Virus record (IMG/VR): IMGVR_UViG_2541047944_000001
Reading direction: 5' to 3' (one strand)
DNA: 9,981 nt
Origin: a virus
Lineage: Duplodnaviria; Heunggongvirae; Uroviricota; Caudoviricetes
This document shows, piece after piece, positions 3,459 through 8,567 of this stretch; position 1 is the stretch's first letter; every line of letters begins with the position of its first letter. Below the pieces are notes generated by a model. That model saw only the letters and a program-made list of their open reading frames with translations, was not told the DNA's origin and did not search any database. The position numbers were made by a program, and so were the translations under genes.

Positions 3459-3543
3459 ATGAAAATGCAAAAACCAGCCTTTTTCCGCGCCGCTCCCGCC
3501 CCGTGGCAGACCACTCCACCGGGAGGACCCGTAAAAAAGGCGG
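3459..3543. repeat. 85-bp direct repeat, copy B (84/85 identical to copy A at 924..1008), between the iteron region and the capsid operon
   Basis: Same sequence as copy A with one mismatch (C vs T at repeat position 17). Flanking sequence diverges immediately on both sides. Confidence 0.9.
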
Positions 3544-3691
3544 ATTGCTCCGGCTTCTGTTACTCGTTGCTTAAAACGGTATGTTATCCCCGTACGGATC
3601 ATCATTCCCCGCCTGTTGTTTTGGTGTGCTTCGCTGTCATAGGCTTTATCTCACAGCAGTAAATTAAAATTTTTGCGTTTTAACCCTTCAC

Positions 3692-3914
3692 CTGTTCACC
3701 TTTTGATATTTTCTCTTTTAATTCATAATGTTAAGGGGTGAACAGTTTCACAAAAACTATTCACCAACTGTTCACCACTGTTCACCCTTGAAGCTCAATA
3801 AACAATCAAAAAGGTGAACAGTGAATAGTTTGGTGAACAGTTCATAAATAACTGTTCACCCTATAATATACTGATATAAAAGATATTTATGACAGGGTGA
3901 ACAGTGGTGAACAG
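3692..3914. repeat. Iteron array: nine perfect copies of CTGTTCACC / GGTGAACAG in both orientations plus degenerate copies; putative P4-type replication origin (ori or crr-like) with an AT-rich spacer
   Basis: Forward copies at 3692, 3768, 3778, 3852; reverse copies at 3737, 3813, 3832, 3896, 3906; a degenerate ATTCACC at 3759. An AT-rich stretch at 3861..3892 could be an unwinding element. To my recollection TGTTCACC is the octamer bound by phage P4 alpha protein at ori and crr. The array lies immediately downstream of the alpha-like gene. Confidence 0.75.
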
Positions 3915-3927
3915 TTATTCCATAAGT

Positions 3928-5745
3928 TTAATTTTTGCTATCGTCATTAGTGACCGATACACATGATGGCATCCAGTCTTCTGATTCCTCCGTCAGTGTC
4001 ACGTTTGAACGCAAACCGTGCTTCGTTTTCCGTTTCATATACTCCCTGCCATATTCCGCCATTGCCCCCGGCATATCTTTACCGAAGCGCGTCAGTGTTA
4101 CAGGTTTACCAAACCCATGTGCCCTCATATAAGCCAGATAGGCATGATAGAGATACCTGCGTGGGCTGAATGGCACAATTTCAGCATTACCCACTAACAG
4201 GCCATCACACATTACCGACGCCATGAGATAGCCGCAGAAGTCCACCAGCGAATCCCCCTCTCGCTTTATCGCCAGTGCTTCTTCAGATTTCTGCTGCTCA
4301 TATAACAGGCGTCTGGCTTCGTCCTGGTCAGCAAACCGTGTAAGCAGATGGCGAATCACTACCGCCAGCTCACCTTCTATTTTTTCCGCCAGCATTGGAT
4401 CGCGTTCGTTCTCCGGTACAACTTCCGAAAAATTGAATATCACCCGACGACGTGAGATCCCCCCGCTGCGGTCACTGAATGACATGGCGTTATTGTTAAC
4501 CGCCAGCACTACTGCCGGAATACGCGTTGAGTAGGGGGCTTTGTGTTTCGGGTCAATTGCCACCTTGTCACCGCCTGTAATGGCCTTAATCCCTGCCCCA
4601 TCACCAGCGTAGCGGGTCATATCCGGCATGATAATCAGCGAAAAGCCAACCACTAACGCGCGTTCCCTTGCATCTTCCAGCGCCTTCATGCTTGCCGATA
4701 CTGTGTTGGCCTTACCCGCCAGCATGGTGCAAATCTCCGCCATCACGCTTTTACCACTTCCCCCTGGACCTGTTACCTCAATGAATAACTGCCAGTCGTA
4801 CCGGTTCGCCAGCACCATGAATAAGGCAGCCAGTACGCGATCCGCCTTGCGGTCATTCTCAGCCACCGAACGGCGTAACCACTTCCAGAAATTCGGCGCA
4901 TGTGTTGCCAGCGTTTCCCCCTCTGCTGGTGGGCTGAAAGGTAATTCACTGGCAATTAACAACCAGTCGTTTTTGTTATGCTCCCGAAAATTACCTGTTC
5001 TGGTATCAAATACCCCGTTACTGAATCCAATCAGGTTACGGGCTGTATTCCCCATTACAGGCAAACTTAACTTCATGGTATCGACCGCCGATTTAATGGC
5101 GTTCTGCGAATAGCTGATCTCCGCATCAATGAAAATCTGCGCCATAGCACGCTGTAACTCTTTATCCTGAACCGGCTCCCATACAATGCCGTTGTAATGG
5201 TGAACAGTGTCAGAGTCGGCATGAATCGCCAGTTCACCGCCATAATGTGCCAGGAGAACTTCGCCGCGTTGACTTGCTCCCATCTGGTTAAGCGCCAGTG
5301 ATGAAGCGTTATCGTCTTTTACCCGCTCTTTTTTCTTTACAGGCAGTTCAACTACCTTTTTCTTTTCCGCCAGCTCTCCCCGCTCACGTTCCAGATATTC
5401 GCGCCAGTTCTCCCGTTTCTGGCTGTGCATTCCTTCAGGATAATAATCAGCATCCCTGACACCTGCCGCTGCCAGTTTCTGCCCGATGGTATTAACAAGC
5501 CCCGGACGCAATAACCCCGCCTGGTAGAGACGCACGCGATAGCGTCCGTCCGGTACGATTTGCAGGTTGTCCAGTTCGGCAAGTTGTTGCTCTCCAAGCC
5601 AGACAGGTGGCACGTTATCGCCAGCCAGTCGCCCGTCCTGTTCCTGCCACTGCTTCGCATGTGCCCACGCATCACTACCCGCAAAAATGATGACTTCCGT
5701 CATTTTGTCACGCGGCTGGTGTTTTAAATTTGGCGCTTTTTTCAT
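3928..5745 (-). CDS. Replication initiator, P4 alpha-like primase/helicase (SF3 helicase domain with Walker A GPGGSGKS), about 605 aa
   Basis: Long ORF with Walker A motif (VTGPGGSGKSV) in the second half, typical of the P4-family phage/plasmid primase C-terminal domain. The first ATG at 5745 is preceded by GGAGAG and overlaps the stop of the upstream ORF (ATGA); the track's start at 5760 is a GTG. Adjacent TGTTCACC iterons support the call. It is shorter than P4 alpha (777 aa, from memory), so the N-terminal primase domain may be reduced or different. Confidence 0.85.
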   Translation of the reverse strand: MKKAPNLKHQPRDKMTEVIIFAGSDAWAHAKQWQEQDGRLAGDNVPPVWLGEQQLAELDNLQIVPDGRYRVRLYQAGLLRPGLVNTIGQKLAAAGVRDADYYPEGMHSQKRENWREYLERERGELAEKKKVVELPVKKKERVKDDNASSLALNQMGASQRGEVLLAHYGGELAIHADSDTVHHYNGIVWEPVQDKELQRAMAQIFIDAEISYSQNAIKSAVDTMKLSLPVMGNTARNLIGFSNGVFDTRTGNFREHNKNDWLLIASELPFSPPAEGETLATHAPNFWKWLRRSVAENDRKADRVLAALFMVLANRYDWQLFIEVTGPGGSGKSVMAEICTMLAGKANTVSASMKALEDARERALVVGFSLIIMPDMTRYAGDGAGIKAITGGDKVAIDPKHKAPYSTRIPAVVLAVNNNAMSFSDRSGGISRRRVIFNFSEVVPENERDPMLAEKIEGELAVVIRHLLTRFADQDEARRLLYEQQKSEEALAIKREGDSLVDFCGYLMASVMCDGLLVGNAEIVPFSPRRYLYHAYLAYMRAHGFGKPVTLTRFGKDMPGAMAEYGREYMKRKTKHGLRSNVTLTEESEDWMPSCVSVTNDDSKN

Positions 5746-6047: not shown

Positions 6048-6368
6048 TTATCCCCGATTTGAATCAGTATTCGCTTTCTTTATGGCATTTAATGCATCTG
6101 TGGCATTTTCAATGGTGCACCGTAACGAAATATCAAACTGCCCAAGCATTGCCAGTAACAAACCGATATTACCCATATCAATGCGCATGGCCTTTTCGTC
6201 ATAGTCCTCATTTTCTGACGCATGCCACATCAGGCTACCAATTGACGCAATACCCATTGATATATTGTCAGTAGCCCCATCCGCAGCGGAATAAACCTTT
6301 TTAGCAATATCATGCTCACAGTTAAAATGCGGATTAATCAGGTACTGGTAATTTGACATATCAGGCAT
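6048..6368 (-). CDS. Hypothetical protein (106 aa), in an operon with the HNH gene and the primase
   Basis: ATG at 6368 overlaps the HNH stop (6361..6363) by 8 nt. AT-rich. No recognisable motif. Confidence 0.5.
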   Translation of the reverse strand: MPDMSNYQYLINPHFNCEHDIAKKVYSAADGATDNISMGIASIGSLMWHASENEDYDEKAMRIDMGNIGLLLAMLGQFDISLRCTIENATDALNAIKKANTDSNRG

Positions 6369-7038
6369 GGCACACCCCCTGACGAATACGGGCGGCGAAT
6401 ACCATCACGCAGCCAGCCGGAGATTGCTGGCGTGCTTCCTGTTCGCTGGTGGCCTCAATGGTAATCACGCGCGGTTGTGCCGTGCTCAGGGCGATAAAAC
6501 GCCAGATATATTTATTCAGGTTGTGCGATTGCCCATTTCCTTCCCCGTGATTAGCAAATTTACCGTGATGCTGCTCGCGAAATTGTTTTACTACTTGTTC
6601 GGCCTCACAAATATCCGCAAATAGGCCTAGTCGATGGTTTTTTCCGTTAACACGACATTGGGCGCGCCATTTTTTATGCTGCTTACTCCAAGTAACTCCC
6701 TTGACTCCCGATGTATTATTTTTTGCCTTTAATATGTTGTATTGATTTTCTGCGCTCGTTGCTTCGCGGAGGTTAGTAATACGATTATCACTGCGTACCC
6801 CGTTGATGTGATCAATTAAATTTGTAGGCCATTTGCCATAAACATAAAGCCATGCAAGTCGGTGCGCTGCATAAAGCCTGTTTTTAACCCCAATCTGAAT
6901 ATAACCATGACTGGTAAGACACCCAGCAACACTACCATTTTTAACGTTTCTGGCTGGTGGAACTCTCCATGTAAAAACGCCTGTTTCAGGGTCGTAATGC
7001 AGGGTTTCACGTAAGTATTTTTGGGTTAGTTCAGCCAT
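6361..7038 (-). CDS. HNH endonuclease with AP2 DNA-binding domain (homing-endonuclease-like), 225 aa
   Basis: HNH_3-type motif (AHRLAWLYVYGKWPTNLIDHINGVRSDNRITNLREATSAENQYN) followed by an AP2-like domain (SGVKGVTWSKQHKKWRAQCRVNGKNHRLGLFADICEAEQVVKQFREQHHGKFA). ATG at 7038 preceded by GGAGG at 7-nt spacing. Confidence 0.8.
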   Translation of the reverse strand: MAELTQKYLRETLHYDPETGVFTWRVPPARNVKNGSVAGCLTSHGYIQIGVKNRLYAAHRLAWLYVYGKWPTNLIDHINGVRSDNRITNLREATSAENQYNILKAKNNTSGVKGVTWSKQHKKWRAQCRVNGKNHRLGLFADICEAEQVVKQFREQHHGKFANHGEGNGQSHNLNKYIWRFIALSTAQPRVITIEATSEQEARQQSPAGCVMVFAARIRQGVCHA

Positions 7039-7135
7039 GACACGCCTCCAATGTGGAGATACTGGAATAGTCAGGGTGAGTTTGGGTATGCTGTGTTCCA
7101 GCCATAATCGTTACTCCTGTTAACGGTTTGGTTAG

Positions 7136-7179
7136 ACGCCCCGTTACTGCTCCTACAGTGCGGGGCGTTGTTTTTTGTG
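7136..7179 (+). terminator. Putative intrinsic terminator in plus-strand orientation with no obvious upstream plus-strand gene
   Basis: Perfect 8-bp stem ACGCCCCG (7136..7143) / CGGGGCGT (7161..7168) with a 17-nt loop, followed by TGTTTTTTGTG. It lies in the divergent intergenic region between the HNH gene and the RHH gene. Confidence 0.45.
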
Positions 7180-7195
7180 TAATGGTAAGTACAAT

Positions 7196-7235
7196 GGTAA
7201 TTACCATGTAACTATAGTAATCAAGGGTAATTACC
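7196..7235. promoter_or_regulatory. Two copies of the perfect palindrome GGTAATTACC (within a 14-bp direct repeat GGTAATTACCATGT), candidate operator sites overlapping the RHH gene start and the divergent promoter region
   Basis: Palindromes at 7196..7205 and 7226..7235, centre-to-centre 30 bp (about three helical turns). A TATAGT -10-like hexamer (7213..7218) lies between them. The second palindrome abuts the ATG at 7236. Confidence 0.5.
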
Positions 7236-7409
7236 ATGTCAACACCATTAGAGAAACGATCGCCACCATACCAAATGCGACTACCAGAAGAATTTAGAGC
7301 GCAACTTGAGGAGGCAGCCAAGGCAGACGGCGACACCTCATTAGCTACTTGGATTAAACGAATACTCCGCAAAGAATTACAACAGCGCGGTATCGAGCCC
7401 AAAGGCTGA
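7236..7409 (+). CDS. Ribbon-helix-helix (Arc/MetJ-like) DNA-binding protein, 57 aa; candidate repressor; not in the supplied ORF track
   Basis: Translation: MSTPLEKRSPPYQMRLPEEFRAQLEEAAKADGDTSLATWIKRILRKELQQRGIEPKG. The segment YQMRLPEEFRAQLEEAAKADG...SLATWIKRIL matches the Arc-family beta-strand/helix/helix pattern. A strong terminator follows at 7504..7536, and palindromic operators sit at the start codon. Only a weak SD (AAGGG). Confidence 0.6.
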   Translation: MSTPLEKRSPPYQMRLPEEFRAQLEEAAKADGDTSLATWIKRILRKELQQRGIEPKG

Positions 7410-7503
7410 CAGCCAACCAGCAAGCCAGCACACTGATCACATTGCCCACCAGCCGCAAATGTGGCATTGTTGGTGATGCGTTCAAGTTTAGTGTGTATCC
7501 ATT

Positions 7504-7536
7504 GGCGACCGCCCCCGGTCGCCTTTGTTTTATGTG
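7504..7536 (+). terminator. Intrinsic terminator for the RHH transcript (plus-strand orientation), located between the convergent RHH and AlpA-like genes
   Basis: Perfect 8-bp GC-rich stem GGCGACCG (7504..7511) / CGGTCGCC (7516..7523) with loop CCCC, followed by TTTGTTTTATGTG. Confidence 0.6.
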
Positions 7537-7550
7537 CCATCACTCCCCCC

Positions 7551-7739
7551 TTACACCGTCTGCGTTCTGCGAGTGGATGCAAGATAAGCATCGAGATCAG
7601 TGCGCATATACAGCACTTTGCGCCCCAGCTTATGAAAAGGGATTTTTACCTTGCCAGTACACGCCCAGTTAGCAAGAGTCTGGACACTTACCCCCAAATG
7701 CTCGGCAGCTTCTTTGCGGGTCATCTTTTCTAAATGCAT
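7551..7739 (-). CDS. alpA: AlpA / excisionase-family helix-turn-helix DNA-binding protein (MerR-like HTH_17), about 62 aa
   Basis: MTRKEAAEHLGVSVQTLANWACTGKVKIPFHKLGRKVLYMRTDLDAYL is a typical excisionase/AlpA winged-HTH. The ATG at 7739 has GGTGA 5 nt upstream; the track's start at 7748 is a GTG. Position between integrase and replication genes is typical of P4-like and PICI elements. Symbol given by family resemblance only. Confidence 0.7.
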   Translation of the reverse strand: MHLEKMTRKEAAEHLGVSVQTLANWACTGKVKIPFHKLGRKVLYMRTDLDAYLASTRRTQTV

Positions 7740-7811
7740 GAGTATCACCGTATACTTCTGATTAAGAACAGGTATACGTTATTTAGCGATGGGGAAGTCT
7801 TGAAGACAGGA

Positions 7812-7841
7812 AAACCAGATACAAAATCGCATATCTGGTTT
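7812..7841. promoter_or_regulatory. Perfect 10-bp inverted repeat AAACCAGATA-N10-TATCTGGTTT upstream of the AlpA-like gene, followed by two CTGGATT direct repeats at 20-bp spacing; candidate operator or recombinase arm-type sites
   Basis: Arms at 7812..7821 and 7832..7841. CTGGTTT at 7835 and CTGGATT at 7855 and 7875, each 20 bp apart. About 70-100 bp upstream of the alpA start. Confidence 0.35.
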
Positions 7842-7880
7842 ACATGGCTGAAATCTGGATTACAGAGGATAAAACTGGAT

Positions 7881-8567
7881 TTATTCTTTGTCTCCAATAA
7901 CTAACTTAAAATCCCTGTTTTTTTGCGGGGATTTTGGATTCATCCCCGACTCCTTAAGCCATCTCTCTATAGTCCCAACTACAGGGACATCATTCCATTT
8001 ATTGCGTAAGTGCGCGTATATCTCTGCGGATAGCCCGGGTAAACTGGCATTAGGGTATTTTTTCCAAGTGTTACAAGCTATAGATAACGCTGTTGATTTA
8101 TGCCTGTTTGTTTTTCCTTTCTTTGCTTTACTACGGTCTTCACTGATAATTTTCTTTACATTAGCTATATCACGTACTGATTTTAATAAATTCTCCGACA
8201 CTAAAATCGCATATCTTTCACGTAACTGATCTGCAAGTCTGTTGAAACCAAGAACTTCAAATATAATGGCAGCTTTCAAAATATCATTGAATTCTGAATA
8301 TGCACTATTAAATTTTTTATCAAAATCATCTCCATACCCGGCACATACAGAAATATTAACCTTTAAATCCTTATTTTCTATCTCTGACGATAATGATAAT
8401 CTCTCCTCCAGAGACATTTTAGATGGTGTGATATTTGCCATATCGCATATCGTTTTTTTTACAAAAGAAGACGCCAGTTCATATCTAATATAATCTGCAA
8501 TAGTATTCATATCCTTCGCATCATTATGGTCAAATTCTATTGCAGCAATGATTTTATTTTCTGACAT
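7881..8567 (-). CDS. Hypothetical protein (228 aa), AT-rich cargo gene immediately downstream of and overlapping the integrase gene
   Basis: ATG at 8567 preceded by GGTGG; overlaps the integrase stop by 14 nt. By eye roughly 35% GC against roughly 50% for neighbours. No recognisable catalytic motif. Confidence 0.7.
   Translation of the reverse strand: MSENKIIAAIEFDHNDAKDMNTIADYIRYELASSFVKKTICDMANITPSKMSLEERLSLSSEIENKDLKVNISVCAGYGDDFDKKFNSAYSEFNDILKAAIIFEVLGFNRLADQLRERYAILVSENLLKSVRDIANVKKIISEDRSKAKKGKTNRHKSTALSIACNTWKKYPNASLPGLSAEIYAHLRNKWNDVPVVGTIERWLKESGMNPKSPQKNRDFKLVIGDKE

Follow-up and report, generated by a model that had tools for sequence, protein, structure and literature searches.

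A predicted ribbon-helix-helix repressor, its paired candidate operators and a predicted cis-antisense RNA at the head of the replication operon of a phage satellite

The virus record IMGVR_UViG_2541047944_000001 is a stretch of 9,981 nt (hereafter the window, meaning this whole stretch) and is a phage satellite. Between its alpA-like regulator gene and the leftward operon that carries its primase-helicase gene lies a gene for a protein of 57 amino acids (aa). We consider it probable that this protein is an autoregulated ribbon-helix-helix (RHH) repressor of the leftward operon, whose first gene is icd-like, that an antisense RNA serves as a second lock, and that release comes through the AlpA pathway induced by a helper phage. 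The gene, its predicted operators, and the promoters that these overlap are as follows.

7236..7409, plus strand: Arc-like RHH protein gene, 57 aa, ATG start; strand predicted at about residues 11-16, helices at 18-31 and 36-50
7194..7207: predicted operator O1, the perfect 14-bp palindrome ATGGTAATTACCAT, with the core GGTAATTACC at 7196-7205
7226..7235: predicted operator O2, GGTAATTACC, abutting the ATG and overlapping the Shine-Dalgarno (SD) region of the RHH gene
7180..7197: degenerate third operator-like copy, 78% match to the repeat unit
7214..7242, minus strand: predicted sigma-70 promoter of the leftward (replication) operon; -35 TTGACA at 7242-7237, 17 nt, -10 TACTAT at 7219-7214, start at ~7207
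7168..7195, plus strand: candidate promoter of the RHH gene, weaker and less certain; -35 TTGTTT at 7168-7173, 16 nt, -10 TACAAT at 7190-7195, start at ~7202, inside O1

An earlier reading of the letters without database searches (the sequence-only reading) had proposed the 57-aa open reading frame (ORF) and two GGTAATTACC palindromes at 7196-7205 and 7226-7235, the second touching the ATG. The ORF is present as placed and the palindrome positions are exact. The ORF map also agrees with the orientations given there, that is, divergent from the HNH/primase genes and convergent with the alpA-like gene at 7551-7748. The substitution pattern marks the ORF as a genuine gene under strong purifying selection: 25 distinct alleles of 57 codons had a median dN/dS of ~0.09, with dN of 0.1-0.3 and synonymous sites mostly saturated. 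Because these sites are saturated, the intergenic motifs described below are kept beyond neutral expectation.

A search of 5.8 billion proteins yielded 108 homologues at 63-95% identity, from Enterobacterales, Pasteurellaceae, and Aeromonadales (Escherichia, Salmonella, Klebsiella, Yersinia, Xenorhabdus, Photorhabdus, Pectobacterium, Pantoea, Gilliamella, Pasteurella, Aeromonas, and Oceanimonas). In the family alignment, the C-terminal half is nearly invariant, and 15 columns are invariant. For comparison of the surroundings, 60 related loci from ~25 genera were retrieved, ~50 of them distinct. The architecture of RHH gene, operators, and operon was conserved across them, so that the conservation in related islands that the sequence-only reading had proposed to check, of the ORF as well as the palindrome layout, was found. 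At least 377 of 5426 complete E. coli genomes carry >=80% of 7095-7440, O157:H7, O111, and O145 strains among them. Only four records in the phage collection encode relatives, all of them satellites or remnants, and the RHH gene is not a typical phage gene.

The gene had been called unannotated. This applies to some E. coli genomes, in which the ORF is uncalled, and not to others, in which the identical protein is RefSeq WP_000106746.1 ('hypothetical protein'). In O157:H7 G5295 (L065 9126-9299), an intact RHH gene, 95% identical, stands without annotation, as in many other RefSeq genomes of Shiga toxin-producing E. coli; at this locus the annotation pipeline PGAP calls a spurious 594-nt antisense 'Icd-like pseudogene' across it. 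Matches were also found in ~120 plasmid records. The one plasmid inspected, the multiresistance IncR plasmid p56661-46.1 of K. pneumoniae (L066 4833-5150), carries the RNA motif described below and a 59-aa repressor relative between IS26 and IS903B. This fragment appears to be a captured satellite remnant and, being flanked by IS26/IS903, is uninformative on function. In Photorhabdus (L034-L038), the RHH gene is present twice, at ~4773 and ~6001, with 1.2 kb between the copies; each copy adjoins a HigB/HigA-like pair, and one of them appears to begin with TTG.

The PHROG profile and structure prediction indicate that the 57-aa protein is Arc/RHH-like. PHROG 228 ('Arc-like repressor') was matched over residues 6-55 with E=3e-7, and weak PHROG matches to RHH partition proteins were seen at E ~6e-4 to 9e-4. 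The Pfam family Arc (PF03869) was matched by 15 of 40 homologues at E<=0.1 (best, 2.5e-4), and the Pfam scan of the 57-aa protein gave no match to a helix-turn-helix (HTH) family. In the AlphaFold2 (AF2) model (pLDDT 78), an extended N-terminus is followed by helices 18-31 and 36-50, in the beta-alpha-alpha order. The PDB neighbours of the model found by Foldseek were nearly all RHH proteins, namely NikR, AmrZ, Arc, CopG, ORF56, VapB, and ParD, with root-mean-square deviations of 0.8-1.5 A over 35-38 residues. The structure prediction suggested in the sequence-only reading thus returned an RHH-like fold, and the Arc/MetJ-like assignment made there is supported by PHROG 228 and by the predicted structure and its neighbours. 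In an alignment by eye with Arc, residues 11, 13, and 15 (P/Q, Q, and R) would face the DNA.

We next consider the palindromes. With up to one mismatch allowed, GGTAATTACC was matched 3 times in the window, where 0.23 matches would be expected, and 0/200 shuffles reached 3. The repeat unit is 18 nt (7192-7209 and 7222-7239), which is longer than had been described. The centers of O1 and O2 are 30 bp apart in the window, which places both on about the same helix face, and 30-35 bp apart across lineages. At the place of the window's degenerate third copy, relatives have an intact TGTAATTACA or GGTCGTTACC. In the related loci, both operators vary together, and they track the beta-strand of the protein from lineage to lineage:

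Beta-strand (P/Q)(Y/F)QMRL: operator of the GGTAATTACC type
Beta-strand QYQ(I/L)RL: operator TGTAATTACA
Beta-strand QFPMRL: operator GGTATATACC
Beta-strand PFQFRL: operator GTGTAATTACAC

This comparison supports the view that the palindromes behave as operators of the RHH protein. As in an operator-repressor module, repeated symmetric sites were found over the target promoter and over the gene's own likely promoter, and they are conserved with the gene.

The two palindromes stand on either side of the leftward -10 box, an arrangement that recurs in almost all of the ~50 distinct related loci. O1 occupies +1 to +14 of that promoter and, at the same time, the start region of the RHH promoter; O2 occupies the spacer of the leftward promoter and the 5' untranslated region (5'UTR) of the RHH gene. 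The leftward promoter matches the consensus at 10/12 positions and was the sole sigma-70-like site found in a scan of 6900-7900. In nearly all distinct related loci, TTGACA-17/18-TAnnnT stands at a constant distance from the RHH start, with 9-11/12 matches. For the RHH promoter, a TAnnnT ending at -41/-42 was found in 25/48 distinct loci, and in the TGTAATTACA class, as read by eye, its -10 coincides with the left half of O1. The layout of an 'autoregulated repressor gating the replication module', as the sequence-only reading put it, is therefore well supported by comparative evidence, namely operator covariation and promoter overlap.

Next to the repressor gene, a second regulator is predicted. 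The following features belong to it and to its target.

7099..7176, plus strand: predicted antisense RNA of ~78 nt, with conserved structure, strand bias, its own -10 box, and a terminator
7087..7092, plus strand: predicted -10 box TATGCT of the RNA promoter, TAnnnT in 46/46 distinct loci
7030..7105, minus strand: icd-like stub of 24 codons; SD AGGAG at 7118-7114, ATG at 7105-7103, stop overlapping the HNH start (ATGGCTGA)

The RNA would be complementary to the 5'UTR, the SD, and the start codon of the first leftward gene. It contains a hairpin at 7110-7125 with the anti-Shine-Dalgarno loop CUCCUGU, and a terminator hairpin at 7135-7169 that is followed by a U-run to 7176 and is conserved in all loci. 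RNAalifold analysis of an alignment of 35 distinct sequences gave a 5-bp hairpin with the CUCC loop, a 13-bp terminator hairpin, and a 4-bp closing helix. This structure was 96% paired, compared with 35-48% in slid controls; 15 pairs showed compensatory changes, and 0/500 shuffles matched it on any measure. The structure is also strand-specific. Wobble pairs specific to one strand numbered 103 cells for the plus strand and 12 for the minus strand, and the fold was -34.8 kcal/mol (z -5.9) on the plus strand and -25.7 (z -3.4) on the minus strand. Upstream, a TAnnnT ends 8 nt before the conserved AGCCAT in 46/46 distinct loci, while other offsets reached at most 11/46; the box is represented by nine different hexamers, over differing protein N-termini on the opposite strand. 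From the conserved plus-strand structure, the -10 box in every distinct locus, and the terminator, a plus-strand RNA of ~78 nt is predicted at 7099-7176. One-strand structure, a predicted promoter of its own, a terminator, and complementarity to a translation-initiation region were all found, as in a cis-antisense RNA, and we predict that 7099-7176 is a previously undescribed RNA of this kind.

A scan of the whole window against Rfam 15 at E<=1 gave nothing on the plus strand at 7099-7176 and no match to the C4 or isrK models; the sole nearby match was PK-repBA on the minus strand, at 20.7 bits against a gathering score of 45. A covariance model was built from the RNA alignment and run on sequences outside the training set. 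It scored 88 bits in the window itself (7098-7179) and matched an O157:H7 island, the IncR plasmid fragment, three deposited phage records, and, with 59 bits and E=8e-10, the island EcCICFT073. The positions homologous to the RNA are L065 8988-9069 in O157:H7 and L064 10771-10854 in CFT073. In the phages mEp460_ev081 (L068 2525-2700) and Morganella phage IME1369_01 (L069), the RNA motif precedes a moron-like ORF of 449 aa; the mEp460 record was read in detail, and there the motif is followed by only a C-terminal RHH remnant (…WIKELVRTELKTKGITPKG). The hairpin at 7135-7176, at the left edge of the interval singled out in the sequence-only reading and not commented on there, is the terminator of this separate conserved RNA. 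That reading was likewise silent on the antisense RNA as such, on the HNH insertion in the icd-like gene, and on the cassette common to several satellite types, both described below.

The first leftward gene is icd-like (NF033153) and is split in the window.

6361..7038, minus strand: HNH_3/AP2 gene for a homing-endonuclease-like protein, an in-frame insert in the icd-like gene (Pfam, PHROG)

Residues 3-175 of the HNH protein matched PHROG 99, and residues 163-224 matched PHROG 6196; its last ~60 residues are the C-terminus of the icd-like protein. In the alignment, the related island L002 has an uninterrupted 67-aa icd-like gene without the HNH insert. The order of the leftward operon in the window is icd-like::HNH, orf106, DUF4222, and primase-helicase.

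From the sequence, we infer DNA binding, repression, autoregulation, RNA expression, and the transcription start sites, and the probable mechanism reads as follows. RHH dimers would bind O1 and O2. With O2 in the spacer and O1 at the start of a near-consensus promoter, occupancy should shut the leftward early operon (icd-like::HNH, orf106, DUF4222, and primase). Since O1 also lies over the start of the protein's own promoter and O2 over its 5'UTR, the RHH protein should limit its own synthesis. The antisense RNA would pair with the ribosome-binding site and start codon of the first gene, so that translation of transcripts that escape repression would be blocked. Release would most likely occur through the helper-induced AlpA pathway and not by direct inactivation of the repressor. 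As a speculative bypass, alpA transcription may pass the hairpin at 7504-7523 and, after crossing the RHH gene, reach the operon. On the minus strand, this hairpin has no U-run, and transcripts from the alpA side may therefore pass, antisense through the RHH gene.

Several observations weigh against this mechanism. On the protein side, the Pfam Arc score of the window's protein (16.9 bits, E=0.0057) is under the 20.4-bit cutoff, the beta-strand is not formed in the AF2 monomer model, and the Foldseek E-values exceed 1, the last because the chain is so short. When PDB sequences were searched, first with the protein itself and then with the profile of its family, only AmrZ (E ~0.5-0.7) and spurious designed helical repeats came up, with no significant match to Arc or Mnt. 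On the DNA side, locus L031 is mixed in its pairing of strand and operator, L052 and L056 are decayed and without clear palindromes, and the covariation of operator and protein could in part reflect shared ancestry and not independent events. The RHH promoter is weak and ambiguous in position, and the -35 of the RNA promoter is poor in the window. TTGACA overlaps the conserved Met-Ser codons, and a coding constraint could lie behind part of its conservation; where the RHH start codon has moved (L032 and L034b), the hexamer nevertheless stays beside O2, which argues that it is conserved not merely as codons.

Among the closest known arrangements is that of phage P22. In its immunity I region (Pant/Pmnt), the operator lies in or over the start of a strong promoter, the weak promoter of the repressor faces it, and sar RNA targets the ribosome-binding site of the downstream gene. 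The predicted layout of the window matches this region closely. Both combine small RHH repressors with a short antisense RNA (Mnt, Arc, and sar in P22; PMC2629481). They differ in that the window's system would control an icd-like gene and a replication module and not an antirepressor, has one repressor gene instead of two, encodes a 57-aa protein without the C-terminal tetramerisation domain of Mnt, and resides in a satellite. An RNA regulator over an operon that begins with an icd-type leader gene is also known from the P1 immI region (c4 RNA-icd-ant) and from the P4 CI RNA, and immunity RNAs of this sort have been noted in some Gram-negative phage-inducible chromosomal islands (PICIs) (PMC10111431). 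The c4 and CI RNAs, however, are encoded on the sense strand, in the same transcript, and pair with repeated targets, whereas the RNA of the window is predicted to be cis-antisense with its own promoter.

The sequence-only reading had compared the system with Stl of staphylococcal islands and proposed that a helper phage must inactivate the repressor. As a Stl-like master repressor, the RHH protein alone would silence the island, and a helper protein would have to bind and inactivate it before excision and replication. We regard this as unlikely, although the gene is divergent from the replication operon, its operators overlap the strong promoter of that operon, and the alternative alleles in one slot (RHH classes and YlcI/YnfO) resemble immunity types. 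In the established picture, Stl repressors diverge to match different phage proteins, and they pair an HTH with a C-terminal helper-binding domain. The window's protein is a single RHH of 57 residues without a second or sensor domain, has no homology or shared architecture with Stl, and is highly conserved rather than hypervariable. Its identity of 63-95% from Escherichia to Pasteurella and Oceanimonas is unlike that of a sensor co-evolving with diverse phage proteins. What the protein shares with Stl of Staphylococcus aureus pathogenicity islands and with Rpr of Gram-positive PICIs is the proposed role, divergent repression of the replication operon (PMC6092414).

The known route of induction also differs from the Stl route. 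Induction of EcCICFT073 and EcCIEDL933 needs AlpA (PMC6092414; preprint on capsid-forming PICIs). AlpA is an activator that, over-expressed alone, leads to uncontrolled island replication, and helpers raise alpA transcription (PMC6092414, Fillol-Salom et al.). The founding paper had tested AlpA as a repressor and found it to be an activator. It identified no global repressor for Gram-negative PICIs, leaving this point 'unclear' (PMC6092414), which leaves room for a Stl-like protein. With published induction of related islands running through AlpA, the claim that a helper must inactivate the RHH protein is unsupported, and the analogy with Stl breaks down over the architecture of the protein, its conservation, and the AlpA route already known.

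A role as a copy-number governor of the plasmid Cop type is also improbable in our judgment. Binding would be the same, and together with the antisense RNA the protein would set the rate of primase expression and the copy number after induction or entry, instead of keeping the satellite quiescent. A small autoregulated repressor with a countertranscript RNA at the leader of a replication operon follows plasmid logic: CopG with RNAII of pMV158 and CopB with CopA of R1 likewise combine a small repressor (RHH in pMV158) with a countertranscript RNA acting on expression of the replication initiator (PMC4485353, PMC5717011). The negative autoregulation predicted from the position of O1 fits as well. 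However, cop genes are co-transcribed with rep, whereas the RHH gene is divergent from the operon; the replicon of the window has a D5-type primase-helicase with iterons, and its RNA targets a leader gene and not rep. In addition, the controlled operon begins with an icd-like gene and does not consist of replication genes only, and an integrated satellite requires silencing anyway. The Cop-type role and the silencing role are not mutually exclusive.

It is very improbable that the protein is an orphan RHH antitoxin or a ParG/partition-type centromere-binding protein unconnected to operon control: some sources label homologues 'HicB family antitoxin', RHH partition proteins are among the weak PHROG matches, and the Photorhabdus copies adjoin HigB/HigA-like pairs, but the RHH transcription unit holds no toxin or ParA partner and is followed by a terminator and then by genes on the opposite strand, the genes on that side differ from locus to locus, in contrast to the constant operon on the other side, and the sites lie within a promoter and not in a centromere-like array. 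A toxin-antitoxin pair was likewise rejected for want of a partner gene, the RHH gene being monocistronic with its flanking genes on the other strand. The palindromes were also considered as origin iterons and rejected in that role, since the iteron array, of GGTGAACAGTT, lies elsewhere, at 3714-3929 downstream of the primase gene.

The probable repressor and its RNA form a unit that is shared among satellites. The module at 7108-7542 is 97-99% identical among satellites with different flanks; one of the islands that share it is a capsid-forming PICI in which an ORF6N/HTH pair replaces alpA, and another is of the same ClpP-capsid type as the window. A tblastn synteny search with the window's proteins recovered few neighbours, because the flanking genes are replaced by non-homologous analogues, and the ORF maps were more informative.

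In many genomes with the alpA allele of the window, a YlcI/YnfO gene adjoins it instead of the RHH gene. In EcCICFT073 (L064 10243-10860; CFT073 NC_004431.1 ~1380242-1380860), the corresponding divergent slot, from alpA to the icd-like gene, is filled by a YlcI/YnfO-family gene for a 59-aa protein; AGGTGTGGCCCAC occurs twice upstream of it, and the antisense-RNA motif of the window is present as well. This gene thus resembles that of the window in slot, size, possession of its own repeats, and RNA, and differs in its operator sequence. A 57-aa basic ORF follows it, and neither gene seems to be discussed in the literature searched. The protein of the window matched YlcI_YnfO_N (NF041551) weakly (19.1 bits, E=0.001), below the curated cutoff of 30 bits. 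An hhalign comparison of the RHH family with the CFT073 YlcI/YnfO protein gave a probability below 1%, and nothing was found for YlcI in Pfam. We therefore do not claim YlcI as an RHH protein, only the shared slot and the weak NCBIfam cross-match; the protein of the window is at most a distant YlcI/YnfO relative in the same genomic slot.

A literature search found no paper on the RHH gene or the antisense RNA in these islands. For the region from alpA to the replication genes, a survey of Gram-negative PICIs lists Bro-type proteins and immunity RNAs (C4/isrK) and mentions no RHH protein (PMC10111431). As a tentative generalization, which we hold to be possible and rather less than likely, Gram-negative satellites (classical PICIs including EcCICFT073, capsid-forming PICIs, and P4-type-primase elements) may share a two-layer immunity cassette at the head of the replication operon, made up of a divergent RHH-type repressor (or YlcI/YnfO) with an operator pair and a cis-antisense RNA. 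On this view, the 'missing' global repressor would be the cassette itself, its specificity classes would be immunity groups, and AlpA-driven transcription would be the helper override.

The remaining features of the window are as follows.

7504..7533, plus strand: intrinsic terminator of the RHH transcript, stem 7504-7523 followed by TTTGTTTT; dG -17.5 kcal/mol, z -5.5
7551..7748, minus strand: alpA-like HTH_17/excisionase-family regulator (Pfam HTH_17 1.3e-12, TIGR01764), convergent with the RHH gene
3714-3929: iteron array of dense direct and inverted GGTGAACAGTT repeats, immediately downstream of the primase-helicase gene
Gene content of the window: integrase, alpA-like regulator, D5-type primase-helicase, ClpP-capsid fusion, DUF1441/TerS-like protein, and the origin iterons

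The strong terminator that had been noted after the RHH gene is real in the window. Its stem has 8 pairs, 7 of them G-C, and begins 94 nt past the RHH stop codon. As a family-wide feature it was rejected; only 11/61 relatives were positive by a strict rule, and it is therefore lineage-specific. The minus strand encodes the integrase, a 228-aa ORF, the alpA-like HTH_17 protein, the HNH_3 protein, DUF4222, and the D5-type primase-helicase. The integrase and alpA genes thus share the orientation of the operon and not that of the repressor gene, a further difference from the Stl and Rpr systems. The GGTGAACAGTT array is most likely the replication origin of the satellite. A 94-nt direct repeat, G+C-rich with internal hairpins, is present in two 95% identical copies at 924-1017 and 3459-3552. 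The ClpP-capsid gene is followed by one of them, and the second separates the primase gene from orf68; a terminator and a regulatory cassette are possible functions.

The present analysis adds to the earlier picture the antisense RNA, the near-consensus target promoter, the specificity classes of operator and protein, and the equivalent slot in the prototype island EcCICFT073. If confirmed, the orthogonal RHH/operator pairs could be used as parts, and the system would offer a handle for engineering PICI-based delivery vehicles. For the question of how Gram-negative islands stay silent, a conserved repressor/operator pair together with an antisense RNA is a concrete and cheaply testable answer, and its confirmation would change the model of island induction from an activator alone to an activator overriding a repressor.

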